IMG/VR virus record: IMGVR_UViG_3300045988_173299
Coordinates: 1 to 42,765 of that record
Direction: 5' to 3' (one strand)
Length of the DNA stretch: 42,765 nucleotides
Source: a virus
Of this stretch, positions 56-19,866 are shown in pieces. The first letter of the stretch is position 1; every line of letters begins with the position of its first letter. The notes beneath the pieces were generated by a model that had not been told where the DNA came from, ran no database searches, and was given only the letters and a program-made list of their open reading frames with translations. The translations under genes and the position numbers were made by a program.

Positions 56-133
56 TGCATAAGAAAAGGCCTGCTCGTGTTGCTGCACGGGCAGGCCTGT
101 TAATTCCTACTGTCCCCAAGAAAGGAATCACTG

Positions 134-1634: not shown

Positions 1635-1764
1635 ATTCCCAGATGTCCGGCCACCACAAGAGCGAGCCGATGACCGCATGGACGTTGTGTCTGCCGTCGG
1701 CTGCGCAGCCGGGCTCGTCCTCATCATCCTTTTACTCGCCGTCATTTGCATCACCACCTACTAA
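1621..1764 (+). CDS. small membrane protein (47 aa, below the ORF-track cutoff)
   Basis: Manual translation gives MNPAEFPDVRPPQERADDRMDVVSAVGCAAGLVLIILLLAVICITTY*. It has a strong TM helix, overlaps the previous gene end, and stops at 1762-1764. Confidence 0.4.
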   Translation: MNPAEFPDVRPPQERADDRMDVVSAVGCAAGLVLIILLLAVICITTY

Positions 1765-1776
1765 AAGGAGACCACC

Positions 1777-2214: not shown

Positions 2215-3638
2215 CCTACCAACCCCTGGCCACCGTCGACGACATCGACCTGACCGCCGACGACGCCTTCAACCAAATCTCACTGCGCATCGCAGAGCTC
2301 GGAGCTACTCACGTCCGAGACACCAGGCACAACGTGTGGAAAATGCGGGCATGGATGAACAAGAAATCCATACCGCTCGACCACTCGACAAACGCCCCAA
2401 CCCGACTACCTTTCAAACAAATCGAGTCCCTAGGCACCGTCGAGCCAGACCCCACACCACCGCCGGCCGGAGAACCTGAAGGGCAGCGACCGCACCACAC
2501 CGAACGCGCCCACGCCCTCCTATCCGCATCATCCTCACACCGGTGGCTGAACTGCCCACCATCAGCAGTCATCGCCGATAAGCAGCCGCAGCCTGCGGAC
2601 AGCCCCGCAGCCGCCGAAGGTACCGCAGCCCACGAACTGGCCGAGCACAAACTTCGCAAGGCCCTCAAGCTCCGCTCCGACTACCCGGCAAGCGACTTCA
2701 TCGACGAAGACATGCAGGAGCACACCGACACCTACGTCACCTTCGTCCTCGACCAGTACAAGGCCGCACGCGACCGCACACCAGACGCACAGATCCTCAT
2801 CGAGCAGCGCCTGGACTTCTCCGACATTGTCCCTGACGGATTCGGCACCGGCGACGCGCTCATCATCGACGACACCACCCTGCACATCATCGACCTGAAA
2901 TACGGCCAGGGTGTCCTCGTCGACGCGGAGAACAACCCACAGATGAAGCTCTACGCGCTAGGGGCGCTGAACCTCCTGGGTTACCTCTACGACGTAGACG
3001 AGGTCGCCATGACGATCTACCAGCCCCGCAGGGACAACATCAGCACCTGGCGGTGCAGCGTCGACGACCTACACACATGGGCTGCCGACACCGTTGCTCC
3101 CGTGGCGAAACTCGCCGCGGCAGGGGAGGGCGACTTCACCGCAGGCGACTGGTGCGGATTCTGCCCCATCAAAGCCACCTGCCGAGCCCGAGCCGACAAG
3201 AACCTGGAAATCGCACAGCACGAATTCCGCCGACCCGCCGAGCTCACCGACACCGAAATCGCCGACGTACTCACCCGGCTACCCGAGGTGAAAAAGTGGG
3301 CGACCGACGTGGAAAAGTACGCGAACACCGCGGCTATCGACCACGGCAAAAAGTTCCCAGGCTTCAAACTCGTTGAAGGCCGAAGCGTCCGCAAGTTCAC
3401 CGACCCCAATGCTGTGGCGACAGCAGCCATCGATGCGGGATACCCCGACGTGTACGAAAAGAAACTGCTCGGCATCACAGCAATGGAGAAGTACCTCACC
3501 AAGCCAGTATTCGCTGATGTCCTCGGCGGTCTGGTCATCAAACCAGCTGGCAAGCCAACACTGGTGCCGGTATCTGACAGGCGCCCAGAGATTCAGGGCA
3601 ACAGCGCCCAAGACGACTTCGGAGGAACCGCAGCATGA
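2211..3638 (+). CDS. PD-(D/E)XK exonuclease, Cas4/RecB-like (DUF2800-type), 4-Cys
   Basis: N-terminal Cys 'HRWLNCPP'. Motifs 'GDALIIDD...IIDLKYGQG' (D...D/ExK). C-terminal 'CGFCPIKATC' is the Cas4-type FeS cysteine triad. Its position upstream of the SSB-like and PolA genes is typical. Confidence 0.65.
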   Translation: MTYQPLATVDDIDLTADDAFNQISLRIAELGATHVRDTRHNVWKMRAWMNKKSIPLDHSTNAPTRLPFKQIESLGTVEPDPTPPPAGEPEGQRPHHTERAHALLSASSSHRWLNCPPSAVIADKQPQPADSPAAAEGTAAHELAEHKLRKALKLRSDYPASDFIDEDMQEHTDTYVTFVLDQYKAARDRTPDAQILIEQRLDFSDIVPDGFGTGDALIIDDTTLHIIDLKYGQGVLVDAENNPQMKLYALGALNLLGYLYDVDEVAMTIYQPRRDNISTWRCSVDDLHTWAADTVAPVAKLAAAGEGDFTAGDWCGFCPIKATCRARADKNLEIAQHEFRRPAELTDTEIADVLTRLPEVKKWATDVEKYANTAAIDHGKKFPGFKLVEGRSVRKFTDPNAVATAAIDAGYPDVYEKKLLGITAMEKYLTKPVFADVLGGLVIKPAGKPTLVPVSDRRPEIQGNSAQDDFGGTAA

Positions 3639-3739
3639 TTCTGCCACCAGCGGCGACCAGAGACCCGCCGGCAACCACCACCGCAGCAAAGCACCAACTA
3701 TCACCATTTTTCCTATCAGCCCCAAGGAGGCTACCCATC

Positions 3740-4282
3740 ATGACCACCCGCATTGTCACCGGAGAAGTCCGCTTGTCCTACGCCAACGTCTGGGAGCCGC
3801 GCTCCATTAACGGCAGCGACCCCAAGTACTCCGTTTCCATCCTCATCCCGAAGACCGACACCGCCACCATCAAGCAGGTCGAGGACGCCGTCGAGCACGC
3901 CATCCAGGACGGCATCGGAAAGTTCGGCGGAAAAATCCCGCCACGCGGCAGCCTGAAGCTCCCACTGCGAGACGGCGACCTCGAACGCGACAGCGAGGAA
4001 TACGCAGGGCACTACTTCATCAACGCCAATAGCAAGATGCAGCCGCAGATCGTTGACCAGAACGTCCAGCCCATCATCGATGAGTCGCAGGTGTACTCCG
4101 GCTGCTACGGGCGCGTCAGCGTCAACTTCTACGCCTTCAACACCAACGGAAACCGAGGTGTTGCAGCAGGGCTCGGCAACATCCAGAAGCTCCGCGACGG
4201 CGAAGCCCTCGGCGGGGGAGTCTCCGCAGTAGCCGACTTCGGCGCACCCACCGGAGGCGCTGCAGAGGATTTCCTCGCATAA
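3740..4282 (+). CDS. DUF2815-like phage protein (putative ssDNA-binding)
   Basis: RBS aaggagg precedes the ATG at 3740. The N-terminus 'MTTRIVTGEVRLSYANVWEP' matches the conserved DUF2815 start. Sits between the DUF2800 and PolA genes. Confidence 0.55.
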   Translation: MTTRIVTGEVRLSYANVWEPRSINGSDPKYSVSILIPKTDTATIKQVEDAVEHAIQDGIGKFGGKIPPRGSLKLPLRDGDLERDSEEYAGHYFINANSKMQPQIVDQNVQPIIDESQVYSGCYGRVSVNFYAFNTNGNRGVAAGLGNIQKLRDGEALGGGVSAVADFGAPTGGAAEDFLA

Positions 4283-4298
4283 CCCCACCTGTTAGTTA

Positions 4299-4328
4299 GC
4301 CACCACAGCGCCCCGGCAGTTGTATCCG
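4299..4328 (+). promoter_or_regulatory. perfect 10-bp stem-loop (gcgccccggc...gccggggcgc) between the SSB-like and polA genes, no U-tail
   Basis: Inverted repeat seen directly in the sequence. Not followed by a T-run, so it is not a canonical terminator. Possibly an attenuator or processing structure. Confidence 0.3.
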
Positions 4329-4363
4329 CCGGGGCGCACCACCACAACACACACACACGAAAA

Positions 4364-6331
4364 ATGCGCACCATCTCCATCGACATCGAAACCTACTCCC
4401 CAGAACCCCTAGCCTCCGCAGGCGTCTACAAATACGCCGAACACCCAGACTTCGACATCCTCCTGCTCGCCTACAGCATCGACGACCAACCCGTCCAAGT
4501 CATCGACCTCGCCCAAGGCGAAGCAATCCCCACCCACATCCTCGCAGCGCTCACCGACTGCACCATCACCAAATACGCCTACAACGCCAACTTCGAACGC
4601 GTCTGCCTTACCCACTACCTACGAAAAAGAAACCACCTACACCCCGACGCGTACCTCAACCCCCACGGCTGGCACTGCACCATGGTGTGGGCATCCGCAC
4701 TCGGACTACCACGAAGCCTCAAAGACGTCGGCACAGCACTCGGCCTTGAACAGCAAAAAATGCGAGAAGGCCAAGCCCTTATCCGCCTGTTCTGCACCCC
4801 ACAAAAACCCCGCGGCAAACAAGCAGAACTATTCGACACCACCCGCACCAGCCCACGCGACCAACCCGACAAATGGGCCACCTTCATCGAATACTGCCGC
4901 CGAGACGTCGAAGTCGAAACCCGCATCCGCCACAAACTCGACCAATTCCCACTACCAGACTGGGTATGGGGGCAGTACTGGGACGACCAGCGCATTAATG
5001 ACCGCGGCATCACCGTCGACCTGACCCTCGCCAAAGCAGCCATCGACGCCGACACCAACCACCGCAGCACCTGCATGGAACGCGCCCGCCGAATCACCGA
5101 GCTCGACAACCCCAACAGCCCAACCCAACTCCTCGGCTGGCTCAACAACCACGGCTGCCCCATCGACTCACTGGCCAAAGCACACGTCACCGACGCGCTG
5201 ACCACCGCCACCGGGCAAGTGAAAACAGTCCTCGAACTCCGCCAAGAACTATCCCGCTCCAGCGTCAAAAAATACCAAGCAATGCTCGACGCCACCTGCA
5301 CAGACGGGCGCGCACACGGACTCATCCAGTTCTACGGGGCAGGGCGCACAGGACGCTGGGCCGGCCGACTCATCCAGGTTCAAAACCTTCCCCGCAACTA
5401 CCTGCCAGATCTTGACACCGCCAGAGCACTGATCCGCGACGGCAACGCCGACACCGCCGAAATGCTCTACGACAGCCTGCCCGACACACTCTCACAACTG
5501 ATCCGCACCGCGTTCATACCCACACCCGGGACGCGCTTCATCGTCGCCGACTACTCCGCCATCGAAGCCCGCGTACTGGCATGGCTCGCAGGCCAAGACG
5601 ACACACTCCAAGCCTTCCGAGACGGAAAAGACCTCTACTGCGCCACCGCCACAGCAATGTTCGGCGTACCCGTCGACAAACACGGCCCTAACGCAGAGCT
5701 CCGACAAAAAGGAAAAATCGCAGTGCTGGCCTGCGGCTACCAAGGCGGGGTAGGGGCCATCCGCACCATGGGCGGAGAGCGCATGGGCATGACCGACACT
5801 GAAATGAAAAACACTGTCGACGCCTGGCGCAACGCCAACACCAACATCGTCACCTACTGGTGGGACATCGACACCGCCGCGAAAAACACCATCAAAACCG
5901 GCCAACCCCAGCAGGTACGAAACATCACACTGCACATGGACGCAGGCATTCTCTTCATCATCCTGCCCTCCGGACGCAAACTCGCATACCCCGGAGCAGG
6001 AATCGGAACCAACCGCTTCGGCGGAGAATCAATCATCTTCTACGGCCCCGGACTCGGCGGAAAATTCGCCCGCCAAGAAACCTACGGCGGCAAACTCGTC
6101 GAGAACATCACACAAGCAGTCGCCCGCGACCTACTAGCCCACGCCATCGGGCTCATCGAAAACGCCGGCCACCACATCGTCATGCACATCCACGACGAAG
6201 TCGTCATCGAAGCCCCACCGGCCACCACCATCGCCGAGATCTGTGACCTCATGGCCCGCAACCCCACGTGGGCACCAGACATACCACTCACAGCCGACGG
6301 CTACGAGTGCACAAGCTACCGAAAAGACTAG
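4364..6331 (+). CDS. DNA polymerase I family A with N-terminal 3'-5' exonuclease
   Basis: Exo I motif 'ISIDIETYS' and Exo II motif 'YCRRDVEVE'. Pol motif A 'DYSAIEARVLAWLAG', motif B 'RQKGKIAVLACGYQGG', motif C 'IHDEVV'. Confidence 0.9.
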   Translation: MRTISIDIETYSPEPLASAGVYKYAEHPDFDILLLAYSIDDQPVQVIDLAQGEAIPTHILAALTDCTITKYAYNANFERVCLTHYLRKRNHLHPDAYLNPHGWHCTMVWASALGLPRSLKDVGTALGLEQQKMREGQALIRLFCTPQKPRGKQAELFDTTRTSPRDQPDKWATFIEYCRRDVEVETRIRHKLDQFPLPDWVWGQYWDDQRINDRGITVDLTLAKAAIDADTNHRSTCMERARRITELDNPNSPTQLLGWLNNHGCPIDSLAKAHVTDALTTATGQVKTVLELRQELSRSSVKKYQAMLDATCTDGRAHGLIQFYGAGRTGRWAGRLIQVQNLPRNYLPDLDTARALIRDGNADTAEMLYDSLPDTLSQLIRTAFIPTPGTRFIVADYSAIEARVLAWLAGQDDTLQAFRDGKDLYCATATAMFGVPVDKHGPNAELRQKGKIAVLACGYQGGVGAIRTMGGERMGMTDTEMKNTVDAWRNANTNIVTYWWDIDTAAKNTIKTGQPQQVRNITLHMDAGILFIILPSGRKLAYPGAGIGTNRFGGESIIFYGPGLGGKFARQETYGGKLVENITQAVARDLLAHAIGLIENAGHHIVMHIHDEVVIEAPPATTIAEICDLMARNPTWAPDIPLTADGYECTSYRKD

Positions 6332-6344
6332 GAGACCAACCACC

Positions 6345-8771
6345 ATGACCACCACGAGCCGAGAGCTGAAAATAGCCGAGGCACCAACTCGGCTCGCCAC
6401 CCACTGGACAAACCACAAAATCACCTGGCAAGCACTCACCGCACGCCTCCAAGACGCCGCTATTAGCCCCAACACCATTGCCCAGTACCAGGCGCTACCC
6501 AAGGACAAGCAAGCCGACGCCAAGGACGTCGGAGGGTTCGTCGGAGGGCACCTCGCAGAAGGGCGACGCAAAAACGGCCATGTCCTCGCCCGCTCAATCA
6601 TCACCCTCGACATCGACTACCCGCCAGAGGACTTCCTCGACGATCTCGACATCTACGCGGCCGGCATCGCAGGGTGCCTATACTCCACCCACTCCCACGC
6701 CCCAGGGCATGAACGCTACCGGCTCGTCATCCCACTGTCCCGAGATGTCACCGCCGAAGAATACGAAGCCGCTGCACGCAAAATCGCCGAACACATCGGC
6801 ATCGACATCTTCGACGACACCACCTACGAGCCGCACAGGCTCATGTACTGGCCGAGCCGTCCCATCGACGCTGACTTCATCTACCGGCCTCTCGACACCA
6901 CCAACTGGGTCGACCCCGACGACGTGCTTGCCGAATATGACGACTGGCGTGACGTCACCACCTGGCCAGTATCCAGCCGCCAAAAAGACCGGCTCAACCG
7001 TACAGTAGGGCAGCAGGCCGACCCACTAACTAAACCGGGCATGGTCGGCGCGTTCTGCCGAGCCCACACCATCGACGACGCGATAGAAACTTTCCTATCC
7101 GACGTTTACCAGCCCACCAATAACGGCAGGTACACCTACCGGGCAGGTGAATCCACCAACGGCGTCGTCACCTACGGAGACAAGTTCGCGTACTCCCACC
7201 ACGGCACCGACCCGGCCGGCGGGCAGCTCTGCAACGCGTTCGACCTCGTCCGCATCCACCTATTCGGCACCGACGACGCGGACGTTAAACCGAGAACCCC
7301 GGCCCACAAACTGCCGTCATTCAAACGCATGGTGGAGCTCGCCAAAAACGACGAAGCCACCAACCGCCAATACGCCGACGAACTCCGCGAACAAGTCATC
7401 TCCGACTTCACCGACAACGACCAGCAACCCGACACCAGCTGGCTGGAAAAAATCGCCCGCAAAAACAACGGAGCCATCGAAGAATCCCTCGGCAACATCG
7501 CCCTGATCATCACCAACGACCCAGGACTACAGGAAATCAGGTACAACCAACTATCCGAAACCATCGATGTCCGCGACCCCCAAAAACTGCCCTGGCAGCA
7601 AGTCAAACCAGGCTGGTCAGACACCGACATCGCCCAGCTCAAGCTGTACCTAGAAAACCGATACCAGCTCTACAGCTCGACGAAAACCATGGAAGCTCTC
7701 GACATCGCGGCAGGCACCCGCGCATACCACCCAATCCGCGACTACCTCGACAACCTGCCCGCCTGGGACGGGGTACAGCGCATCGACACGCTCCTTGTCG
7801 ACTACCTCGGAGCAGACAACACCGACTACGTGCGCGCAGTCACCCGTAAAACCCTCATCGCCGCGGTAAGGCGCATCTACCGGCCAGGCACCAAGTTCGA
7901 TACCGTGCTGATTCTCTCCGGCCCCCAGGGCACCGGCAAATCCACCCTGTTCGCAAAACTCGCAGGCGACTGGTTCTCCGACGCACTGTCACTGACCGAC
8001 ATGAAGGACAAGACCGGCTCGGAAAAGCTGCAGGGCTACTGGATCCATGAGCTCGGCGAGCTGGCCGGCATGCGCAAGATGGAAGTCGAAGTCGTCAAGG
8101 GCTTCATCTCCCGCACAGACGATAAGTACCGCGCCTCATACGCGCGTGTTGTCGAGTCGCACCCGCGACAATGCATCATCGTCGGCTCCACCAACGCCGA
8201 AAACGGCTTCCTGCGGGACGTCACCGGAAACAGGCGGTTCTGGCCTGTGGCCATCACCGGCGAGTCAGAACGCAAAACCTGGGGGCTGGACGCAGAAACG
8301 GTGGGGCAGATCTGGGCGGAGGCATTGGCCGCGCACCGGGCGGGGGAGCCACTGCACCTGACCGGTGCGCTGGCGGAAGACGCGACTCGGGCGCAGGACG
8401 CGGCCATCGAAACCGATGACCGCGTCGGGGTTGTGCAGGAGTACCTGGACACTGACCTGCCGGCGGGGTGGCGAGAAATGACAGTGCCACAACGCCGCGC
8501 CTACCTAGCAGGCCACGCCCCGTCAGCGGAGTTCGGTGGCGCCCCAGAGACGCGGTTTCCCCGGATGGAAGTGTCGAACGCCGAGATCTGGTCGGAGTGC
8601 TTCGGCAACGAGCCGGGGGATATGCAGCCGAAGGACTCTTACGCGATCAGCGCGATTATGAAGAAACTCGACGGGTGGGAGAAGCCGGGAAACAGAGGAG
8701 GTTTCAAACGTGTGTTCCCATATGGAAAGCAGCGAATTTACCGCAGGAAAGTCGAGCAACCGCCGTTCTAA
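6345..8771 (+). CDS. bifunctional primase-polymerase (PrimPol) / SF3 helicase (VirE/D5-like)
   Basis: RBS aggag precedes the ATG at 6345. N-terminal archaeo-eukaryotic primase-like motifs ('ITLDIDYP', 'STHSH'). C-terminal Walker A 'LSGPQGTGKST' and Walker B region 'CIIVGSTN'. Confidence 0.75.
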   Translation: MTTTSRELKIAEAPTRLATHWTNHKITWQALTARLQDAAISPNTIAQYQALPKDKQADAKDVGGFVGGHLAEGRRKNGHVLARSIITLDIDYPPEDFLDDLDIYAAGIAGCLYSTHSHAPGHERYRLVIPLSRDVTAEEYEAAARKIAEHIGIDIFDDTTYEPHRLMYWPSRPIDADFIYRPLDTTNWVDPDDVLAEYDDWRDVTTWPVSSRQKDRLNRTVGQQADPLTKPGMVGAFCRAHTIDDAIETFLSDVYQPTNNGRYTYRAGESTNGVVTYGDKFAYSHHGTDPAGGQLCNAFDLVRIHLFGTDDADVKPRTPAHKLPSFKRMVELAKNDEATNRQYADELREQVISDFTDNDQQPDTSWLEKIARKNNGAIEESLGNIALIITNDPGLQEIRYNQLSETIDVRDPQKLPWQQVKPGWSDTDIAQLKLYLENRYQLYSSTKTMEALDIAAGTRAYHPIRDYLDNLPAWDGVQRIDTLLVDYLGADNTDYVRAVTRKTLIAAVRRIYRPGTKFDTVLILSGPQGTGKSTLFAKLAGDWFSDALSLTDMKDKTGSEKLQGYWIHELGELAGMRKMEVEVVKGFISRTDDKYRASYARVVESHPRQCIIVGSTNAENGFLRDVTGNRRFWPVAITGESERKTWGLDAETVGQIWAEALAAHRAGEPLHLTGALAEDATRAQDAAIETDDRVGVVQEYLDTDLPAGWREMTVPQRRAYLAGHAPSAEFGGAPETRFPRMEVSNAEIWSECFGNEPGDMQPKDSYAISAIMKKLDGWEKPGNRGGFKRVFPYGKQRIYRRKVEQPPF

Positions 8772-8774
8772 AAG

Positions 8775-9060
8775 GGTGGAACAACCTCGGGGAACAACTT
8801 GTTCCACCCCAGCGCGGGGCGCACGGTAGTGAACTGAATCACAAAATCAGTTGTTCCGCTTGTTCCGGTTGTTCCAAAAGTTGTTCCACCCTAAAAATAC
8901 CCTACTACCTCTATCTTTACCTCTACTGGAACAACTGGAACAAGAAATATAGAAGAAAAGAAAAACATAGGAATAAAGGGGCATACGCCCTATATGGCCC
9001 TTAAAACCCTTAAAACAGCGGAGCTATCTAAAGTTCGCTGTTCCTTGTTCCACCCCACCC
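8775..9060. promoter_or_regulatory. putative origin of replication: at least 10 TTGTTCC/GGAACAA iterons flanking an AT-rich core
   Basis: GGTGGAACAAC (8775), GGAACAAC (8791), TTGTTCCACC (8799, 8881, 9044), three spaced TTGTTCC (8851-8875), TGGAACAA x2 (8927-8944). AT-rich stretch 8891-9010. Immediately downstream of the primase-helicase gene. Confidence 0.55.
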
Positions 9061-9100
9061 AAAACAACACCCCACAACACCCGAACCGAGGCCGCAACCA

Positions 9101-9499
9101 ATGCGAGAAAAACAAGTCGAACAAAAGTTCGCATACGCCATAAAACAAGCGGGAGGCAAAGCACTAAAACTCACCAGCCCCAACCTCGCCGGAGTGCCCG
9201 ACAGACTCATCCTCATGCCAGGAGGACGAGCTGCATTCGCCGAAATCAAAGCCCCCGGCAAAAAACCCAGACCACTCCAAATCCACCGCATCAACCAACT
9301 CGCAGAGCTCGGATTCACCACCTACATCATCGACCACCCCAACCAAATCCCAGACGTGATCAATGCACTACACACCGCACCCATACCAAGCCTTCACCAC
9401 CAACTACATCGAGACCCACCCGCAAGCAGCCATCATTCTTGGAATGGGAATGGGCAAAACCATCATCACCCTGACCGCCATCAACAACCTGATCTATGA
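9101..9499 (+). CDS. VRR-NUC domain nuclease
   Basis: PD-(D/E)XK motifs 'GVPDRLIL...AEIKAPGKK...Q...L'. The His-rich tail overlaps the next gene by 137 nt, so the true 3' end is uncertain. Confidence 0.6.
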   Translation: MREKQVEQKFAYAIKQAGGKALKLTSPNLAGVPDRLILMPGGRAAFAEIKAPGKKPRPLQIHRINQLAELGFTTYIIDHPNQIPDVINALHTAPIPSLHHQLHRDPPASSHHSWNGNGQNHHHPDRHQQPDL

Positions 9500-10724
9500 C
9501 CGCTTCACCGTCCGCAAGGTCCTCATCATCGCTCCCTTGCGAGTCGCCCGCGACACCTGGCCCCAAGAAATAAACAAATGGGACCACCTCACCAACCTCC
9601 GAACCGCAGTCATGGTCGGCGACAAACACACCAGAGACCAAGCCCTCAGCACCGACGCTGACATCTACATCACGAACCGCGAGAACCTTCCCTGGCTCGT
9701 CGACCACGTTGGCCACGATTGGCCTTTCGACATGGTTGTCATCGACGAGCTGAGTTCTTTCAAGTCTCACCAGGCCAAGAGGTTCAAAGCCCTGCGGAAA
9801 ATGCGCCCCCACATCAACCGCATCATCGGACTGACCGGGACCCCAGCCCCCAACAGTCTGATGGATCTATGGGCACAGTTCGCCCTCATCGACGGAGGAG
9901 ACCGGCTCGGAAAATTCATTACCCGATACCGCAACCAGTACTTCCTGCCGGACAAACGCAACGGCGCACAAATCTACACCTACAAGCCCAGACCAGGAGC
10001 CGAACAAGAGATCTACGACGCCATCAGCGACATCACCGTGTCCATGCGTACCACCGACTACCTCGACCTACCCGCAGTCACCTACACCAACCACCCAGTA
10101 ACCCTCAGCGCCCCGGAGCGGGCAGCCTACGACCGACTTAAAAAAGACATGGTCCTCCAACTAGGTGACGACACCATCGATGCTGCAAACGCGGCCGCGC
10201 TATCCGGAAAGCTCCAACAACTCGCCTCCGGCGCCATCTATATCGACGACGAGCACAACACCACCACAGTGCACGCCCGCAAGCTCGACGCACTCGAAGA
10301 TCTCATCGAGCAGGCCAACGGCGCCACCGTCCTTGTTGCCTACTGGTTCAAGCATGAAGCCAGTCGCATCCTCGACCGGTTCCCGCAAGCCCGAGCTCTG
10401 GCCACAAGCCAGGACTTTGCCGACTGGAACCGCGGCAAGATACCCGTCGGGCTGATTCACCCGGCTAGTGCCGGTCACGGCCTGAACCTCCAGGCAGGCG
10501 GCCACATCCTCGTGTGGGTGACCACGCCCTGGTCGCTTGAGCTGTACGAGCAGACCAACGCCCGCCTGCACCGGCAAGGGCAAACTGAGCCGGTCAGCAT
10601 CATCCACCTTGTGGCCACGGACACCATCGACACGAGGGTAGGTGCCGCGCTGAGCGGAAAATCCGTGACGCAGGATGCCCTCGTAGAAGCTGTCGTAGCA
10701 GAACTGAGCAAGGAGAACCAGTAG
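9363..10724 (+). CDS. SNF2-family DEAD/DEAH helicase
   Basis: Q-motif 'PHPYQ', Walker A 'GMGMGKT', DEXH-like 'VVIDELSSFKS'. C-terminal helicase motifs 'GLNLQAGGHILVW' and 'HRQGQTEPVSIIHL'. Confidence 0.85.
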   Translation: MHYTPHPYQAFTTNYIETHPQAAIILGMGMGKTIITLTAINNLIYDRFTVRKVLIIAPLRVARDTWPQEINKWDHLTNLRTAVMVGDKHTRDQALSTDADIYITNRENLPWLVDHVGHDWPFDMVVIDELSSFKSHQAKRFKALRKMRPHINRIIGLTGTPAPNSLMDLWAQFALIDGGDRLGKFITRYRNQYFLPDKRNGAQIYTYKPRPGAEQEIYDAISDITVSMRTTDYLDLPAVTYTNHPVTLSAPERAAYDRLKKDMVLQLGDDTIDAANAAALSGKLQQLASGAIYIDDEHNTTTVHARKLDALEDLIEQANGATVLVAYWFKHEASRILDRFPQARALATSQDFADWNRGKIPVGLIHPASAGHGLNLQAGGHILVWVTTPWSLELYEQTNARLHRQGQTEPVSIIHLVATDTIDTRVGAALSGKSVTQDALVEAVVAELSKENQ

Positions 10725-11323
10725 TGCTAACAACAGAACAAGCACAGCAACTAATCCGTGCGTATACCAGCATCAACCACCTGTCTCAACGACTAGAGCA
10801 GATGAAACTCCCTACCAACGGCACCACAGCCGATGCTTACCGCCCCCCACGGACACCAGGGCCAACCCCGCCTTGCAACCTCACCTGGGTCGACTTCGAC
10901 TGGCAACTGACAGACATGCTCGCCCGAACCGCGGCACAAGCACGAACCGATATCGGCAACCTCTACGGCCTACCAGTACGGACGCTGTCTGGCTACTCAG
11001 GATGGCTCCACGGCATTAGAGACCACCTCATAAACAGCGAATGGATCAACAGTGAGACCTGGTTAGCGCACCAATACGAAACTGAACCCAACGAGCACAC
11101 CATGGCCAGCCTCACCATCAGTTATGCCAGCTATCTACAAGATGCCCTCGAACCACCACTCAACGGCCGGCCTGCGGGCACTGCACTCGAGGTCGCATGG
11201 GAGACCGGCATACCGGTCGAGACAATCCGCACCTGGGGCAAACGTGGACGAGTACCACGGTTCATGGGGCCGCACGGAGCCTGGCTCTATAGGGTTGCAG
11301 ATATTAAACAGATGCAAGCGTAA
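10724..11323 (+). CDS. hypothetical protein with C-terminal excisionase/MerR-type HTH (possible late-gene regulator)
   Basis: GTG start overlaps the SNF2 stop. C-terminal motif 'ALEVAWETGIPVETIRTWGKRGRVP...GAWLYRVADI'. It is the last gene before the low-GC island and the packaging genes. Confidence 0.5.
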   Translation: MLTTEQAQQLIRAYTSINHLSQRLEQMKLPTNGTTADAYRPPRTPGPTPPCNLTWVDFDWQLTDMLARTAAQARTDIGNLYGLPVRTLSGYSGWLHGIRDHLINSEWINSETWLAHQYETEPNEHTMASLTISYASYLQDALEPPLNGRPAGTALEVAWETGIPVETIRTWGKRGRVPRFMGPHGAWLYRVADIKQMQA

Positions 11324-11482
11324 GAATGCGCATGTACCAGTGCGTATGCGAAACTAGTGGGGAGCCACCGCAAGATTCATCTTGCGAATATTCATCATCT
11401 CCGCCTAGCATTGGTGTCGAAAGAAGCACTAACAACCCCGCCTCTTTCCGTTTGGACTTCACCAAACGCTCCGATCAAAAGA

Positions 11483-11521
11483 AAAGGAGCTACGCAGTAA
11501 CTGATGCCACGTAGCTCCTTT
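11483..11521 (-). terminator. perfect 12-bp hairpin (AAAGGAGCTACG...CGTAGCTCCTTT); U-tail on the minus strand
   Basis: Perfect inverted repeat. The minus-strand downstream sequence is TTTTCTTTTGATCGG. Sits directly 3' of the minus-strand small ORF. Confidence 0.55.
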
Positions 11522-11526
11522 AGGCC

Positions 11527-11679
11527 CTAGAGCATATCTAGCCAGTCGCTAAGACGTGCGCCCACACGTTCAACGACATCTATGGCTCGAATCGCTCGGT
11601 ATGCCCAGACGAAAACCCTCATCTTCGTCTGGGCATTCTTATTGCCCAGACCTGATTTGGATGTATCTTGGCGTTCCAT
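11527..11679 (-). CDS. small basic ORF (50 aa) in the low-GC island, below the ORF-track cutoff
   Basis: Minus strand: GAGGAGGTG RBS, 8 nt, then ATG. Translates to MERQDTSKSGLGNKNAQTKMRVFVWAYRAIRAIDVVERVGARLSDWLDML*, followed by the terminator above. Contains an internal 11-bp palindrome, so it could instead be a structured RNA. Confidence 0.3.
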   Translation of the reverse strand: MERQDTSKSGLGNKNAQTKMRVFVWAYRAIRAIDVVERVGARLSDWLDML

Positions 11680-12037
11680 AAGGCCATCACCTCCTCGAAG
11701 GTCTCATGCCCCACAACGGTGACCACGAGACCGCCACGTGAGCGGCCCGTGGGGCTCTCGCGTGAGGCGGTGATACTCCGAGCGACTGCCCGAAGCGTAA
11801 ATAAGTTTAGCTTGAGGTGGGGAAGGTCTGAAATAGCTACTACATTTAGCGGTGTTCCGATCTCTCGCCTTGGATTATGTAGCGCCAGACGCTAGATGTT
11901 GTACATGCTGCAGTGGAAGTGGAGCGGTGGTGGTAGGTCACCTTATGTGTGATATGTGTCTCATTTTTGTTTTCGCTTGCCTGCTGAACCACCCGTGTGG
12001 TTAGAATCAAGTCAGTACAAGTGTGAGCCCATAACCC

Positions 12038-13333: not shown

Positions 13334-14902
13334 ATGCCGTGGCGCGGACCCGAATACGAAGGCGAGTTTCCGTCTTTGGGATGGTCGGTGGTCGATTGGA
13401 TTGAGTCGAACTGTGTCATACCTGACGGTGACCACAAGGGCGAGCCTTACATTTTGACTGATGAGATGGTGGCTTTTTTGGTTCATCATTATCGGTTGAA
13501 GCCGGAAGCGACGGAGGATAAGCCGCGCCGGGCTTGGAACTATCGTCGCTCCCAGTTGGTTCGTCCACAGAAGTGGGGCAAGGGGCCACTGACCGCGGCG
13601 ATGATTTGTGCTGAGTCTGTGGGACCTGTGGTGTTCGCAGGGTGGGATGCTTCCGGTGAGCCTGTTGGTAGGCCGTGGCCGACACCGCTGATTCAGGTGA
13701 CGGCGTCGTCAGAGGACCAGACAGCGAATGTTTATGCGGCGCTGCAGCCGATGATTGAGGAAGGGCCGCTGACTGAGGTCATCCCAGACACGGGCGATAC
13801 TCGAATCAATCTGCCTGGCGGTGGTCGCATCGACCCGGTGACTTCGAAGGCTCGTTCGCGGCTGGGGCAGCGCGTGACATTTGTGGTGCAGGATGAAACC
13901 CAGATGTGGACGCGGTCCAATGGTGGCGTGTTGTTGGCTACGACGCAGCGTCGCGGTCTGGCGGGCATGGGTGGTCGTTCTGTGGAGACGACGAATGCGT
14001 GGGATCCTGCTGAGAACTCGGTGGCGCAGCAGACGTTTGAGTCGAAGGCTCCGGATATTTATCGGGATTTTCGTCAGGCTCCGGCGTCTTTGTCGTACCG
14101 GAATAAGCGTGAGAGGGCGCGTATCCACCGGCATGTTTATGGCGATTCGTGGTGGGTCGATATGGAGAATATCGAGTCTGAGGCTGCGGAGCTTTTAGAG
14201 ACGGACCCTGCGGAGGCGGAGCGGTTTTTTGGGAACCGCATTGTGTATGGCCGTGGCGCGTGGATTCCTGCTGATACGTGGGAGTCTGGTGACCGTGTGG
14301 AGCAGCCTGCTGATGGTGCGCCGATTTGTTTGGGCTTCGATGGTTCGGAGAACAATGACTGGACTGCCATTACTGCTATTTCGATGGATGGGACGGTGTT
14401 CATTCCGACGTTTGGTCCTGATGAACAGCCGACGTATTGGAATCCTGATGAGCATGGCGGTCGTATTCCTCGTGATGAGGTTGATGCTGCGGTCGATGAG
14501 TTGTTCTCGCGCTATGACGTAGTTCGGATGTATTGCGACCCGCAGGATTGGCGTTCTGAGATTGGCGACTGGTCTGTGCGGCATGGTGATGAGCGTGTTT
14601 TTGAGTGGGCTACTAACCGTGTCAGCCAGATGTTTGAGGCTCTCAAGACGTTTGAAACGAACCTTGCTACGGGGCGTGTAGGCCATGACGGCACTAAAAC
14701 TCTTGGTATCGCGGTGGCGAATGCTAGGAAGGTGGCTCGACCTGGCCAGAAGTACATTCTCGGGAAAGCCACGGAAAGTCAGAAGATTGATATCGCGATG
14801 GCGATGGTGCTCGCGCACGAGGCGTGGGTGAATTCGATGGCGCTGGGGTGGGCACCGCGTGAGCAGAACAGGGTTCTGGTCTTTGGGCGTAGGAGGCGAT
14901 GA
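13334..14902 (+). CDS. terL: terminase large subunit
   Basis: 522 aa. ATPase region 'VTFVVQDETQMW'. RNaseH-like nuclease region 'ICLGFDGSENNDWTAI'. Located between terS and the portal gene. Confidence 0.85.
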   Translation: MPWRGPEYEGEFPSLGWSVVDWIESNCVIPDGDHKGEPYILTDEMVAFLVHHYRLKPEATEDKPRRAWNYRRSQLVRPQKWGKGPLTAAMICAESVGPVVFAGWDASGEPVGRPWPTPLIQVTASSEDQTANVYAALQPMIEEGPLTEVIPDTGDTRINLPGGGRIDPVTSKARSRLGQRVTFVVQDETQMWTRSNGGVLLATTQRRGLAGMGGRSVETTNAWDPAENSVAQQTFESKAPDIYRDFRQAPASLSYRNKRERARIHRHVYGDSWWVDMENIESEAAELLETDPAEAERFFGNRIVYGRGAWIPADTWESGDRVEQPADGAPICLGFDGSENNDWTAITAISMDGTVFIPTFGPDEQPTYWNPDEHGGRIPRDEVDAAVDELFSRYDVVRMYCDPQDWRSEIGDWSVRHGDERVFEWATNRVSQMFEALKTFETNLATGRVGHDGTKTLGIAVANARKVARPGQKYILGKATESQKIDIAMAMVLAHEAWVNSMALGWAPREQNRVLVFGRRRR

Positions 14903-16317
14903 TGACAGTAGCGATTAATAATGGTGGCTTGTCGCCGGATGAGCAGAATTTGCTCCAGGCGTTGCATCAGAAATGGATGCAGCAGCGTGGTCAGGACATC
15001 GCGAACGAGAAGCTTTTCGCTGGTCTGCAGAAGGTTGCTCAGTTGGGTATTGCGGTACCTCCTGAGGTTGAGCCGTTTGCATTTCCGATGAATTGGCCGC
15101 GGATGTATGTAGAAGTATTAGAGCAGCGCATGGATGTGCGACTGCTTTTGCGTTCCGGGGTAATTGAGGAAGACCAGGAGCTGCGCGCCGATTGGGAAGC
15201 TAATAGCCTCGAGCTGGAGCATCACTTGGCGCATACTGATTTGCTGGTTTATGGCCGGTGTGTGGCGTCGGTGTCGTGGCCGGACCGTGAATCGGGGCAG
15301 ACACGGCCTGTGATTCGTGTGGAGTCGCCGCGGGATATTGCGGTTATCGTGGATCCCTACACGCGGGCTACTCGCGGTGCTCTTCGAGTTTATGCGGACG
15401 AGATGGGCATTGAACAGCGCATGACGCTGTATTTACCGAATGAGACCGTGCATCTTGCGCGTGAGGCTGGCACAGACCAGGTTGTTTCTCGTGACCGGCA
15501 TGACTTGGGTCGGGTACCAGTGGTTTGCCAGTGGAATCGGCGTATGTCAGGGCGTTTCTCCGGTACCAGTCAGATGGAGGACATTAAGCACTGGGTGGGG
15601 CTTATGTCTCGGGTGGTGCTGAATCTGCAGTTGGCGATGGAGACAATCGCGACGCCGCAGAAGGTCGCTATTGGAGTGTCGCAGAAGGATTTTGTTGATC
15701 CGGATACTGGCGAGGATTTGGACCCGTGGGAGACCTACATGGGTGCGATCTGGGCTATTTCTCGGACAACGAAGGAGGGGGTTGATGTTAAGCAGCTTCC
15801 TGCGGGTGATTTGGCTGGGTTTATTTCGACGGTGGAGATGATTACGAAGCAGGTGGCCGGCCAGACGGGTTTGCCGTTACGCATGCTTGGTCATTCGACT
15901 GTGAATCCAGCTTCTGAAGGCGGTATTAAGGCCGACGAGGCGCGTCTGGTGAAGACGGTGGAGCGGTTGAATACGACGGCTGGGGTGTTCTGGTCGTGGG
16001 TTTTGGGTATTGCGGAGCGGGTCCGGACTGGTGTGTGGCCGGAGGGTGCGCCGATTCAGATTGAGTGGCGTAATCCGGCGACTCCGACGTTGGCGGAGAT
16101 GGCGGATGCGATGCAGAAGCAAACCGGTGGCGCCCCGACGTTGTCGGTGCGTGGTGCTTTGAATCAGATGGGGTACTCGCAGGCTCGTATCGATAAGGAA
16201 CTGCAGTGGCTGGAGGAAGAGGCTGCGGGGATGTATACGCCGGTGGATGTGAAGTTGGAGCGGCAGCCGCCGGAGATGTTGCTTGAGGAGCCTTCGCCTG
16301 ACGGTGGTGGTGCCTAG
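14902..16317 (+). CDS. portal protein
   Basis: About 470 aa, immediately after terL. Start overlaps the terL stop (ATGATG). Confidence 0.7.
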   Translation: MTVAINNGGLSPDEQNLLQALHQKWMQQRGQDIANEKLFAGLQKVAQLGIAVPPEVEPFAFPMNWPRMYVEVLEQRMDVRLLLRSGVIEEDQELRADWEANSLELEHHLAHTDLLVYGRCVASVSWPDRESGQTRPVIRVESPRDIAVIVDPYTRATRGALRVYADEMGIEQRMTLYLPNETVHLAREAGTDQVVSRDRHDLGRVPVVCQWNRRMSGRFSGTSQMEDIKHWVGLMSRVVLNLQLAMETIATPQKVAIGVSQKDFVDPDTGEDLDPWETYMGAIWAISRTTKEGVDVKQLPAGDLAGFISTVEMITKQVAGQTGLPLRMLGHSTVNPASEGGIKADEARLVKTVERLNTTAGVFWSWVLGIAERVRTGVWPEGAPIQIEWRNPATPTLAEMADAMQKQTGGAPTLSVRGALNQMGYSQARIDKELQWLEEEAAGMYTPVDVKLERQPPEMLLEEPSPDGGGA

Positions 16318-17867
16318 TGGCGGAAGTGTATTCGTTTCGCTCACTGCCTCCGGGGGTTCGTGAGGAAGCTGAGGCGCGTGGCGTAGTGGTGCGGCGCACG
16401 CTTACTGATATGCGGACGCGGGTGATGCCTAGGCATCGGCCGATGGATATTGACCATTGGGAGCGTACTCGTGGTCCGGAGGTTATCCGTTTGGTGACGC
16501 AGGCGCAGGCCGAGAATGCTGCGCTGGTTGACCGCACATTTAATTTGACGCTGTTGGCGCAGGGGTACATGACGGAGCCGATTGGGGAAATTCGGCCGAC
16601 GGCGTTTGCGGGCGTGATGCCTGATGGTGACCCGCTGGATCTGATTCCGCAGGCGGTGGCTAACCGTGTGCGGGAGCGACTAGCAACGGGCGCGGAACCG
16701 CTGCAGGCGTGGCAAGCAGGCGGGAAGCTTCTTGCGACGATTGTGCAGACCGCGTTATCGGATACGCAGCGTATGGCGAAGATGGTGGCGGGGTTTGCCC
16801 GGCCCCGGACGTTGTACGTGCGGATGTTGCGGCCACCGTCGTGTTCGCGGTGTACGGTTTTGGCTGGCAAACGCGGGTTCTGGGACAAGCCATTTCAGCG
16901 GCATCCGGGTTGTGATTGCACGCAGGTTCCGGTTCCGGATTGGTCTAAGGACACGTTCGAGGGGCCTGCTTTTGACCCGGTGGCGGCGTTTGAGGAGTTG
17001 CCGGTATCTGAGCAGGACCGGTTGTTTACGAAGGCTGGCGCGGAGGCGATTCGCTCGGGTGCGGATATTGCGCAGGTTGTGAACTCGCGGTCGGGGATGA
17101 GTCATGTTGGTGATTCGTATACGCGGGTGGGGTCAACTGCTCGGGGTAAGGCGGTGCAGTATTTCGTTGGGGAAGACGGGAAGCTGCGTAAGCAGGTGAA
17201 TTACCGGAGGCTGTCGGTTCCGAAGATTGTGGAGATGACTGAGGGTAACCCTGATGGTCGTATTGCTTTGTTGTACCGGCATGGGTATATACGTAGCGTT
17301 AAACCGGGCAGCGAGAAGGGAGTTGTGCTGCGGAGTACTGAGGCCCGTCGTGAGGCAGGTCAGTTGGCGCTGAAGAAACAGCTAGAAAGTGACTTGCCAA
17401 AGATTGATATGAGTGCGCCGGTACGCCACGTGGTCGATTCAAAAATTCGTATCCGAAGAGGTGCAATTTATAGTTCCGGTGGCCATTCTTATGAAGCCGG
17501 AGAATCTCTGCTTGCCGTAATTCGCGCGCATCCGGAGCTCTCTTTTCGAGGAGAGAAGACTTTCTTTCCTCCATACGAAGGCGGCAAGGAGGCTCTGGCA
17601 GCATGGCTCGAGGAGGATCCTTCACCGCTGAAAGCAGCGCTCGAAAACCCAAAGGAAGTGGTGGCCACTCGAACTGGGCGTAAGGTTAAGTCATTAGTTA
17701 GTGGGCCTGATGGGGAAACTATCGAGGTAGAGTTTGTACTTGAACCGGCGCGCAAGTCGTCAGAATATGATTTCAAAATTGCGACCCTGTACCCGATTTC
17801 TGGAAAAGGCGTATCGTCGATTAAGGACAGTGGAGGGGTTATCACCGGCCCGTTGATGGAGGCATGA
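16317..17867 (+). CDS. MuF-like head morphogenesis protein with a low-GC C-terminal extension (putative fused toxin domain)
   Basis: GTG start overlaps the portal stop. Position (portal, then MuF, then scaffold) is typical of SPP1 gp7/MuF-like proteins. GC drops from about 65% to about 50% from around nt 17270 (about aa 318) to the end. Confidence 0.55.
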   Translation: MAEVYSFRSLPPGVREEAEARGVVVRRTLTDMRTRVMPRHRPMDIDHWERTRGPEVIRLVTQAQAENAALVDRTFNLTLLAQGYMTEPIGEIRPTAFAGVMPDGDPLDLIPQAVANRVRERLATGAEPLQAWQAGGKLLATIVQTALSDTQRMAKMVAGFARPRTLYVRMLRPPSCSRCTVLAGKRGFWDKPFQRHPGCDCTQVPVPDWSKDTFEGPAFDPVAAFEELPVSEQDRLFTKAGAEAIRSGADIAQVVNSRSGMSHVGDSYTRVGSTARGKAVQYFVGEDGKLRKQVNYRRLSVPKIVEMTEGNPDGRIALLYRHGYIRSVKPGSEKGVVLRSTEARREAGQLALKKQLESDLPKIDMSAPVRHVVDSKIRIRRGAIYSSGGHSYEAGESLLAVIRAHPELSFRGEKTFFPPYEGGKEALAAWLEEDPSPLKAALENPKEVVATRTGRKVKSLVSGPDGETIEVEFVLEPARKSSEYDFKIATLYPISGKGVSSIKDSGGVITGPLMEA

Positions 17868-18166
17868 TGGATTTTTATGATGCGATTGCACGTATCGAAG
17901 CGTCACCATCGGTGTCTGTACGGTACGGCGATACAGGGGTACAGGATTTTGAGCTAGAAGAATTTCTTGCTGGGCTTGTACAGGATAAGGCAGTTGTCAC
18001 TGATATTGAGGCTAAGCGTGAGTTTCTGGCCTGGTTCGATGAAGATGAAGATTGGCTAGATCCGGATTGGGACGACCCCGTGGTTGAACAAGCAGTCAGG
18101 GATTTACACGCTTTCGCCAGTCTGGAACCAAAGATAGCAATCAAGGTTCCAAAGCCACCGGCTTAA
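17864..18166 (+). CDS. small highly acidic protein (candidate immunity protein or DNA mimic)
   Basis: 100 aa. 'DEDEDWLDPDWDDP' with acidic residues far outnumbering basic ones. Low-GC. Start overlaps the MuF stop (ATGATG). Followed by a terminator. Confidence 0.5.
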   Translation: MMDFYDAIARIEASPSVSVRYGDTGVQDFELEEFLAGLVQDKAVVTDIEAKREFLAWFDEDEDWLDPDWDDPVVEQAVRDLHAFASLEPKIAIKVPKPPA

Positions 18167-18181
18167 GACGCACGCCAACGC

Positions 18182-18217
18182 AACCCGTTCTGGTTTTCAC
18201 CAGAGCGGGTTTTTTCA
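18182..18217 (+). terminator. rho-independent terminator (AACCCGTTCTGG..CCAGAGCGGGTT plus T6)
   Basis: 12-bp stem with one G·U pair, then TTTTTT. Confidence 0.65.
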
Positions 18218-18253: not shown

Positions 18254-18859
18254 ATGTTTATGAATCGTCCACTGTGGATCCGTGCGATTGAGGGCACGGA
18301 CGGGAATGGAGCCGCCAGTGCCCCAGCCAGCGAGCAGCAGACCGGTGAGCCCACCGGCCAGGCTGACGAGGTGGGGCAGGGCAGCCAGGACGACGCCCCG
18401 CCCGCCGAGGGGGAAGAGAATCCCGACGGGCGAGGCTCGAAGAGCGCAGTGCTCGCGGACTTGGCGCGAGAGCGCGACAAGCGGCAGGCACTCGAAGCGA
18501 AACTTGCGGAGTTCGAGAAGGCAGAAGAAGAGCGCAAGCGGTCGGAGATGACCGAGATTGAACGTCTGCAGGCCGACCTTGAAGCCTCCCGTAAGGCTGA
18601 GGAAGACGCCCGCGCGGAGATCGCGAAGCGTGACCTTGACGCAGAGCGCGCGCGGATTGCCGCGGAGTTCAAGATCCCAGCCGCGATGGCTGGACGCATC
18701 ACCGGTGCGACGCCGGAAGAGATGCGCGACGACGCTAAGGCTTTGGCTGAAGCGATTGGCCCCTACACGGGGCCTGCGGATAAGTCGGCGGGTCGTGGCG
18801 GTGGCCAGGCGACGCCGACATCGTTGGAAGCCGCCATCGCGGCTAAGTACCAAAACTAA
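18254..18859 (+). CDS. scaffolding protein
   Basis: 201 aa. Predicted alpha-helical, charged and coiled-coil-like ('EAKLAEFEKAEEERKRSEM...'). Directly upstream of the major capsid gene. Confidence 0.65.
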   Translation: MFMNRPLWIRAIEGTDGNGAASAPASEQQTGEPTGQADEVGQGSQDDAPPAEGEENPDGRGSKSAVLADLARERDKRQALEAKLAEFEKAEEERKRSEMTEIERLQADLEASRKAEEDARAEIAKRDLDAERARIAAEFKIPAAMAGRITGATPEEMRDDAKALAEAIGPYTGPADKSAGRGGGQATPTSLEAAIAAKYQN

Positions 18860-18873
18860 GGAGGATGCCGAAT

Positions 18874-19866
18874 ATGGCACCGATTACTCTTGAGCAGGCA
18901 AAGCTCAACACCATGGAAGACTATGATCCGGCGATTATTGATGAGTTCCGTAAGAACTCGACGCTGCTGGACATGCTCACTTTTGACCGCGCAGTTTCCC
19001 CGGCAGGCGGAGGCGCGACTCTGGACTACGGATACCGTCGAGTCAAGACTGAGCGCGGCGCGGCGTTCCGTGCCCTGAACTCTGAGTACCAGACCGAAGC
19101 TGCGACGACTGAGAAGCACTCGGTTACTTTGGCCCCGCTGGGTGGCGCGTTCGAGATTGACCGTGTCATTGCGAAGCTTGGCCCGGCTGCGTCTGGTGAG
19201 ATTGTGTTCCAGATGCAGCAGCTCATTAAGGCCACCAATGCACGCTTCCTCGATGAGGTCATCAATGGTGATACCGCTGCAGGCGCAAGTGACTCCAGCG
19301 CTGGTTTCGATGGCCTTTCTAAGGCGCTGCTTGGCTCCGATACTGAAGTGACTGACACAGGCTATGACTGGTCGAAGTTCGCATCGGCTGAAGAGAGCCT
19401 TACTGTTTTGGATCACTTGGACGAGTTCACCAGTGTCCTTGATGGCCCGCCGACCGTGTTAATTGCGAACCGCCGAGTCCTTGCGAAGATTCGCGCTGCA
19501 GCTCGCCGCGCTAACCTGTACACCAAGTCCCCGGTCGATGGGCTGCAGGTTAATGGTGTGCCGTTGGAGCGTGAAACTATCGGCAATCTGGTGCTCATTG
19601 ATGCGGGCACGAAGGCAGGCACCAATGATCCGATTATCCCGGTGACGAAGGGTGCGACTGATATTTACGCGGTGCGCCTGGGGCTGGATGGCTTCCACGG
19701 TGTTACGACCACGGAAGGCAGCATGCTACAGACGTGGCTTCCAGACTTTACGACTGCTGGCGCGGTGAAGAAGGGCGAAGTCGAACTTGGCCCGGTGGGT
19801 GTCGCGCTCAAGCGCACCAAGGCTGCTGCGGTTCTCCGTGGCGTCAAGGTGTCTGCGGAGGTGTAG
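18874..19866 (+). CDS. major capsid protein
   Basis: About 330 aa, follows the scaffold gene. RBS aaggagga upstream. Confidence 0.7.
   Translation: MAPITLEQAKLNTMEDYDPAIIDEFRKNSTLLDMLTFDRAVSPAGGGATLDYGYRRVKTERGAAFRALNSEYQTEAATTEKHSVTLAPLGGAFEIDRVIAKLGPAASGEIVFQMQQLIKATNARFLDEVINGDTAAGASDSSAGFDGLSKALLGSDTEVTDTGYDWSKFASAEESLTVLDHLDEFTSVLDGPPTVLIANRRVLAKIRAAARRANLYTKSPVDGLQVNGVPLERETIGNLVLIDAGTKAGTNDPIIPVTKGATDIYAVRLGLDGFHGVTTTEGSMLQTWLPDFTTAGAVKKGEVELGPVGVALKRTKAAAVLRGVKVSAEV

Follow-up and report, generated by a model that had tools for sequence, protein, structure and literature searches.

Does a phage head protein with an extra C-terminal domain, followed at once by a small acidic gene, carry a toxin and its antidote? 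This question is raised by the 516-amino-acid (aa) protein encoded directly after the portal gene in IMG/VR record IMGVR_UViG_3300045988_173299, of which positions 1 to 42,765, the whole stretch of DNA analyzed, are called here the window. A preliminary description made from the letters of the window had proposed a MuF-like head protein whose C-terminus is a phage-delivered polymorphic toxin, with the acidic open reading frame (ORF) downstream as its immunity gene. We found that the C-terminal domain and the small gene form one exchangeable cassette, and we consider it probable that the head protein bears a grafted EndoU-like ribonuclease (RNase) with a coupled inhibitor gene, and that the enzyme is packaged and delivered to cells lacking the inhibitor.

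The 516-aa ORF lies at 16317-17867 on the + strand, directly after the portal gene as had been described. Residues 1-361 (16317-17399, + strand) form the N-terminal head-protein module, which is of the VG15 or 'MuF-like minor capsid protein' type, contains a CxxC...HPGCDC motif and matches phrog_1522 (E 1e-45 over aa 42-336). Residues 362-516 (17400-17867, + strand) form the C-terminal effector domain, a predicted EndoU-like/BECR RNase. The small acidic ORF, the predicted inhibitor (immunity protein), follows at 17864-18166 on the same strand, and its start overlaps the upstream stop codon (ATGA). We found the overlapping ATGATG start of this strongly acidic 100-aa ORF to be as claimed, with an isoelectric point (pI) of 4.08 for its product; the position of a GGAGG at 17858-17862 favors the second ATG, at 17867, which gives 99 aa and is also the choice of public gene callers. 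The gene pair is closed, again as claimed, by a strong intrinsic terminator at 18182-18211 (+ strand; 13-bp stem and T-run; folding free energy -22.8 kcal/mol, z -4.7). This terminator stands midway through the late structural operon, with the inhibitor gene before it and the scaffold gene after it, and orphan copies of the cassette carry part of it along. Effector domain, inhibitor gene and terminator together make up a low-GC exchangeable cassette at 17400-18211 on the + strand.

We found homologues of the head protein in 93 phage records (Arthrobacter, Brevibacterium, Streptomyces, Gordonia and Rhodococcus) with 35-38% identity, and these align only to aa ~35-376. Three homologues looked at in detail, from Arthrobacter, Gordonia and Brevibacterium phages, have 373-404 aa and the scaffold gene directly next to them; ordinary homologues are without both the C-terminal extension and the small gene. 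In a multiple alignment with the phage homologues, common homology ends at aa ~367. Conservation with these ordinary homologues stops there. The domain boundary, placed earlier at aa ~318, had to be moved, since homology runs to aa ~367 and the swappable cassette begins at aa ~362 (nt ~17400). Depositors labeled the homologues 'MuF-like minor capsid protein' or 'capsid maturation protease', and the 'MuF' label of the N-terminal module rests on its position after the portal gene and on such labels by other annotators. The Pfam family VG15 (PF25310) scores 17.5 bits on the window protein versus a cutoff of 26, and passes that cutoff in homologues and in further proteins that carry the C-terminal domain. 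From its sequence, the 516-aa protein appears to be a minor head protein of the VG15 or 'MuF-like' type with a grafted, horizontally exchanged cassette.

Two sibling prophages (L022 and L023) differ at this cassette. Their DNA identity is ~0.9 in the portal gene and N-domain, 0.47-0.56 over L022 5086-5828, and 0.8-0.97 beyond. The divergent segment coincides exactly with the C-terminal domain and the small ORF together, and it is the sole stretch of ~50% identity between the two prophages. At the protein level, the portals are 98% identical, the N-domains 88%, the C-terminal domains 43%, the small ORFs 42% and the major capsid proteins 97%. The recombination boundary lies at an 'IDxxxPVxH' motif, at aa ~362 of the window protein (nt ~17400).

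The cassettes also differ from their surroundings in base composition, with GC contents of 0.48-0.50 versus 0.59 in L022 and L023. In the window, GC is 0.505 for nt 17418-18166, 0.595 for the N-terminal part and 0.585 overall (standard deviation 0.027 in 749-nt intervals), and GC at third codon positions is 0.47 in the C-terminal domain, 0.42 in the small ORF and ~0.64 in neighboring genes. The cassette is the lowest-GC patch of the 42.7 kb; 0.5% of 749-nt intervals are lower, and the minimum (0.498) begins at 17541. The reported drop in GC is real, and only the upstream value of 65% was slightly too high, given the 0.595 measured. Codon bias alone was rejected as its explanation, since the cassette is also the unit of recombination between sibling phages.

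The small protein (99-100 aa; 24 Asp/Glu versus 9 Lys/Arg) belongs to no known family in Pfam, NCBIfam, PADLOC or PDB-sequence searches, and its profile matched no IMG/VR loci and one species-representative genome. Its AlphaFold2 model is all-alpha with four to five helices (predicted local distance difference test, pLDDT, 90.1), and the ratio of nonsynonymous to synonymous substitution rates (dN/dS) is 0.05-0.2, also between chromosomal copies. Hence, low dN/dS and a confident model indicate that the small ORF encodes a genuine protein. Several solved immunity proteins of contact-dependent inhibition (CDI) systems are also all-alpha (PMC9086364).

We found that a homologous acidic ORF (pI 4.1-4.3) overlaps or abuts the stop codon of the C-terminal domain in six lineages (the window, L018, L022, L023, L028 and L029), and that in phages this ORF occurs only directly 3' of this domain. 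In two of these lineages, L028 and L029, the VG15 N-domain is short and the C-terminal domain is just ~30% identical; a further phage copy, L027, is on a short contig that retains the small ORF and only the end of the domain. When lineages are compared pair by pair, the identity of the domain correlates with that of the small ORF (r 0.89 over 15 pairs). The small acidic protein is most likely the cognate inhibitor, an immunity protein that would bind and block the RNase in the producer cell. As a separate observation, L028 lies on IMGVR_UViG_2773857939_000001 (20,995 nt) together with L030, and the two are diverged copies (64% identity) of a gene for a short VG15 module and C-terminal domain, at opposite ends and in opposite orientation; either two prophages or an assembly in which related elements were joined could account for this contig.

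Stand-alone copies of the acidic ORF were found at two chromosomal loci and in one CRISPR array, which makes three independent chromosomal captures. In several Corynebacterium assemblies (L012-L017, L019 and L020; e.g. L012 6001-6306), a copy with 55-58% identity sits between tyrS and a sigma-70-region-4/helix-turn-helix gene. At this locus, dN/dS between two orphans is 0.17, a sign of purifying selection, tblastn found no toxin remnant upstream, and the neighboring 170-aa and 89-aa ORFs match no family. The second kind of orphan (L024 2263-2624; also L025 and L026), 89% identical at the aa level, is flanked by a TetR regulator gene and a CopD/CtaG gene. Its DNA homology corresponds to window 17837-18198; it begins 27 nt before the ATG, keeps the last 9 toxin codons and enters the terminator stem. 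A stand-alone immunity gene with a 3' remnant of the toxin is what polymorphic-toxin systems classically leave behind (PMC3482391). The orphan inhibitor genes imply that the enzyme reaches or acts on cells without the phage, which supports delivery from outside.

The third capture, inside the CRISPR array, is the only really surprising element. Outside phages, the C-terminal domain has a single homologue in the databases, P0001 (147 aa, C. pseudotuberculosis), and we found this to be an artefactual ORF whose N-terminus is merely translated CRISPR repeats. Its gene comes directly after cas1-cas2 of a type I-E system (L004 = CP026501), where 29-nt repeats begin at L004 7909, 7970, 8031 and 8092 with 32-nt spacers between them. 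A fifth repeat begins at L004 8766, after a 645-nt gap of phage DNA that is bounded exactly by two repeats (array span 7909-8794). This 645-nt unit contains the toxin domain's final 110 codons (58% aa identity), the GGAGG-ATGATG junction and an intact 100-aa ORF (81% identity). Homology to window 17533-18170 (+ strand; ~78% DNA identity) begins at the first base after repeat 4 and ends ~11 nt past the stop codon. The region is identical in four assemblies (L004-L007), three of which are complete genomes. No CRISPR-repeat-like sequence was found in the window or near the other orphan copies, and the three ordinary C. pseudotuberculosis spacers had no match in the window at up to 6 mismatches. 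To our knowledge, and short of an exhaustive search, there is no precedent for an orphan immunity gene exactly between two CRISPR repeats.

What the C-terminal domain does was approached through its family, its conserved residues and its predicted fold. The domain has no meaningful match in Pfam, NCBIfam, PADLOC or PDB sequences; effector and inhibitor are two protein families covered by no curated model. When 1.84 billion cluster representatives were searched exhaustively with HMMER, 13 proteins with the domain came up. A word-indexed search for homologues, run first with the domain itself and next with its profile, returned just the C. pseudotuberculosis fragment and one short protein, and a scan of IMG/VR with one carrier (P0014) gave no match. 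Ten of the 13 proteins were scanned against Pfam, which left out a near-identical full-length protein, the C. pseudotuberculosis fragment and a weak multi-stretch match to an 1801-aa protein. Four of the ten (P0014, P0016, P0017 and P0022) have long or short VG15-type N-termini, two of them above the Pfam cutoff and two weak, and five are short proteins, possibly fragments. In P0019 (405 aa), the domain is fused to an N-terminal Rep_OBD, a plasmid replication origin-binding domain (E 1.5e-5); this protein could reflect the capture of a cassette by a plasmid, or else be a chimeric ORF.

We found His371 (17427-17429), His390 (17484-17486) and Lys414 (17556-17558) to be invariant in 11 sequences. 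In an alignment of 14 sequences, His390 and Lys414 are invariant and Ser/Thr490 (17784-17786) is present in all. Phe417, Pro418, Leu431, Pro445, Pro493 and Gly496 are also invariant in the alignments, Ser/Thr490-x-Tyr/Phe492-Pro is conserved, and Lys414 precedes Thr, Ser or Asn.

The AlphaFold2 model of the domain, built from a 12-sequence alignment, has a pLDDT of 90.9 and a predicted template modeling score of 0.84. Its N-lobe (domain numbering) consists of a helix (15-19), a hairpin of two strands (21-25 and 29-34), a helix (38-50) and a strand (60-62), and its C-terminal core consists of two helices (69-77 and 83-89) and a four-strand meander (93-96, 101-108, 114-123 and 132-142). The EndoU-like group of BECR RNases has two alpha/beta modules, an N-terminal variable one and a C-terminal conserved core of helix and four strands; the N-terminal module carries His-His(-Lys), and the terminal strand, beta4, carries Ser/Thr (10.64898/2026.08.28.747851). 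Both the two-module architecture and this set of residues are present here. In the model, His371 is placed in the first N-lobe helix, His390 just past the hairpin, Lys414-Thr415 in the next strand and Ser/Thr490 in the last core strand. The best PDB match of the model in Foldseek was the Kp342 toxin. The best matches among viral models were MuF-type minor capsid and polyvalent proteins, and the RNase toxins RelE, BrnT, MqsR and ParE were among the structural matches. These matches are individually weak yet appear to converge on one fold class, the BECR RNases, and the C-terminal domain is predicted to be a probable EndoU-like RNase of the BECR fold.

Mu gpF offers another way to read the domain. 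Pfam MuF_C matched the C-terminal core below threshold in 2 of 11 members (best E 0.011; 12.9 and 14.1 bits versus a cutoff of 27.6) and PBECR2 did so in 1 of 11 (13.4 bits versus 27.1); the window protein itself matches neither. A comparison of the domain profile with Mu gpF by hhalign was negative, and tblastn with the Mu gpF C-terminus found close Mu relatives only. The domain could be a non-catalytic one of the MuF_C type, as proposed for Mu gpF, that serves in RNA or DNA binding, head assembly or ejection, and the acidic ORF could encode a chaperone or nucleic-acid mimic that keeps it free until packaging. The weak Pfam matches to MuF_C fit this proposal, the Mu gpF domain being held inactive by Iyer et al. 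(PMC5512222), as do the ordinary minor capsid proteins among the best viral structural matches and the place of the gene in the middle of the head-assembly operon. However, the invariant His-His-Lys and Ser/Thr are typical of active EndoU-like enzymes, and homologous head proteins, both close and distant, work without the domain and the small gene. Furthermore, hypervariability between siblings is hard to square with a housekeeping role in assembly, and the small gene exists alone in chromosomes, away from any phage. We consider a non-catalytic head domain unlikely.

A different possibility severs the small gene from the domain, such that the acidic ORF is an independent anti-defense gene, for example a DNA-mimic anti-restriction protein or an anti-CRISPR, with no functional tie to its neighbor. 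The product is indeed small, very acidic (pI 4.1) and of no known family, it occupies a variable low-GC slot as anti-defense genes often do, and one copy is inside a CRISPR array. But in the phages of all six lineages it occurs only after this C-terminal domain, with overlapping start and stop codons and diverging in step with it, and head proteins without the domain are also without the ORF. Moreover, there would be no benefit to a host in keeping an anti-CRISPR or anti-restriction gene at conserved loci or in its own array. We give little credence to this proposal.

The pair could also be a toxin-antitoxin or abortive-infection module that acts in the lysogen, for prophage maintenance or superinfection exclusion, and is not borne by the virion. 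The same-fold RNase toxins among the structural matches, the two-gene layout of toxin and inhibitor, and the temperate phage are as expected for such a module. Yet the toxin here is no separate gene; it forms the C-terminal portion of a 516-aa structural protein in a late head operon and precedes its inhibitor. The sole promoter-like site close to the cassette overlaps with the small ORF's start, and a capsid-protein fusion is how virion-delivered effectors are built (PMC5512222, PMC5576092). A role confined to the lysogen seems very improbable.

The array-borne copy invites one further conjecture, which we hold to be hardly credible: the injected RNase would be a counter-defense enzyme that cuts pre-CRISPR RNA (pre-crRNA) or crRNA, and the inhibitor in the C. 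pseudotuberculosis array, transcribed from the leader with the crRNAs, would safeguard CRISPR immunity as a host 'anti-anti-CRISPR' gained by way of the array. That PBECR domains cut host defense RNAs is a speculation of Iyer et al. 2017 (PMC5512222).

Finally, the ADP-ribosyltransferase suggested earlier from an R...SxS...ExE motif is refuted, despite such domains being known on MuF proteins (PMC5576092), since the residues, present in this one sequence, are not conserved (R380/R381, S386/S387 and E467/E470/E472 are variable or gapped across the family), no ADP-ribosyltransferase match was found by sequence or structure, and the predicted fold is BECR/EndoU-like.

In the reading we prefer, that of a virion-borne RNase with its own inhibitor, late transcription would yield the head protein and translational coupling the inhibitor, which would keep the RNase lobe neutralized inside the producer. 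The VG15/MuF-like module would bring the RNase into the procapsid, by analogy with SPP1 gp7, the precedent for head-protein packaging (cited in PMC5512222 and PMC5576092), and with MuF polymorphic toxins and PBECR fusions. The RNase would then get to inhibitor-less cells by ejection with the DNA or after lysis and would cut RNA there (tRNA, rRNA or mRNA), whereas lysogens with the same cassette and hosts with orphan genes would be protected. Bacteria would keep stand-alone inhibitor genes because a matching inhibitor would let cells survive or resist. Phages would swap cassettes with one another by recombining at the domain boundary.

Several points weigh against this proposal. The N-terminal module has no Phage_Mu_F (PF04233) match, and hhalign of its profile against Mu gpF was negative; a head protein does follow the portal gene, as was first proposed, but its Pfam family is VG15 and not the canonical MuF domain. 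In addition, none of the ten scanned carriers has an LXG, Rhs, CdiA or other toxin-delivery N-terminus, and the C-terminal domain is almost only on VG15/MuF-type proteins, while the sharing of effectors between scaffolds is a hallmark of polymorphic toxins. That His371, His390, Lys414 and Ser/Thr490 are close in space is something we infer. Co-variation of adjacent genes is partly expected from shared ancestry alone, and since dS is saturated for the CRISPR-embedded copy, its dN/dS is silent on selection after capture. Comparative genomics (modularity, pairing, hypervariability and orphans) strongly supports the core reading of a temperate-phage head protein with a variable C-terminal toxin, a small immunity gene to match and a horizontally exchanged cassette. 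What had to be given up from the preliminary description is the ADP-ribosyltransferase identity, the boundary at aa 318 and the canonical MuF domain.

The cassette belongs to a complete temperate siphophage, since the window holds genes for an exonuclease, DNA polymerase, primase-helicase, structural module, endolysin, integrase and ImmA-like protease. The temperate setting proposed earlier is borne out by the integrase (39548-40738, E 1.5e-64), and the head-protein gene is inside the head module. INPHARED contains no close relative of this phage, and near-identical phages were found in at least 4 metagenome assemblies. All cassette relatives with an organism name are from Corynebacterium; the host of the window phage is a Corynebacterium (Actinobacteria).

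In the head module, the order is TerL (13334-14902), portal, the 516-aa gene, the 100-aa ORF, scaffold and major capsid protein (18865-19866), and family scans confirm these neighbors. The portal gene (14899-16317, + strand) matches Pfam SPP1_portal (E 8e-15) and phrog_104 (E 2e-98), and the 516-aa gene begins at its stop codon. Portal residues 266-287 have a weak match to Pfam PT-TG ('pre-toxin TG'; E 0.03, 14.8 bits versus a cutoff of 23.5), which is most likely noise. The scaffolding gene (18254-18859, + strand) matches Pfam DUF4355 (E 7e-8) and phrog scaffolding families. Along the genome, GC skew is -0.1 to -0.3 over most of the replication arm (window 1-12000), except at ~8-9 kb, and is positive in the structural arm (13000-39000), although the identified genes of both arms are on the + strand; the left arm also has a strong positive AT skew.

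The locus is compact and tractable and comes from Corynebacterium, which matters both on skin and in industry; it has a predicted RNase of ~155 aa, four catalytic candidates and a 100-aa inhibitor. It also comes with natural 'experiments', in the form of sibling phages that differ almost only in the cassette and hosts that keep the inhibitor alone at three loci. The new effector and inhibitor families would improve annotation of the 'capsid maturation protease / MuF-like' genes of actinobacteriophages, and a complete gene in 645 nt of phage DNA between CRISPR repeats is an oddity for CRISPR biology itself.

Among known systems, MuF polymorphic toxins share with this locus a portal-adjacent head protein, a variable C-terminus that is absent from short members, a downstream ORF of <150 aa and a temperate phage (PMC5576092). 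All described MuF toxins are from temperate phages (PMC5576092), and the toxin class seen most often on MuF proteins is that of nucleases, EndoU_bacteria among them (Jamet et al. 2017, PMC5576092). Apk2/IapK of an S. pneumoniae prophage is an experimentally validated example; the purpose and delivery of MuF-type toxins are still open and a goal of the field (PMC12226406). Unlike the MuF polymorphic toxins (PMC5576092), the cassette described here has a VG15 N-domain, undescribed effector and inhibitor families and a Corynebacterium host; also unlike them, its effector was not found on other toxin scaffolds, and orphan immunity genes occur in host chromosomes, one of them in a CRISPR array.

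The PBECR and MuF_C domains of polyvalent proteins are similar in that a predicted BECR RNase is C-terminal on a MuF-type head protein and is presumed to be packaged and injected; MuF-PBECR and portal-PBECR fusions of phage BECR domains have been described (Iyer et al. 2017, PMC5512222; Pfam PF18810 and PF18819). They differ in that the Pfam matches here are below threshold, and in that the domain here has an extra N-lobe with two invariant His and a Lys, whereas PBECR has a single His in the first helix (PMC5512222). A dedicated inhibitor gene is present here, and there is none in the description of PBECR (PMC5512222). Compared with the EndoU toxin CdiA-CT STECO31 and its CdiI (PDB 5HKQ; PMC9086364), there is no detectable sequence similarity, the triad spacing is 19 + 24 residues versus 17 + 57, and the carrier is a phage capsid protein with predicted delivery in place of a type V secretion filament.

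As with the orphans of CDI, Rhs and type VI secretion systems (PMC3482391, PMC12483513), immunity genes exist here without the toxin, sometimes with a 3' fragment of it; unlike those orphans, their source is a phage structural gene, and one lies between CRISPR repeats. Hence, the overall architecture, that of a MuF polymorphic toxin or MuF-PBECR fusion, is already known, and what is new is the effector and inhibitor families.

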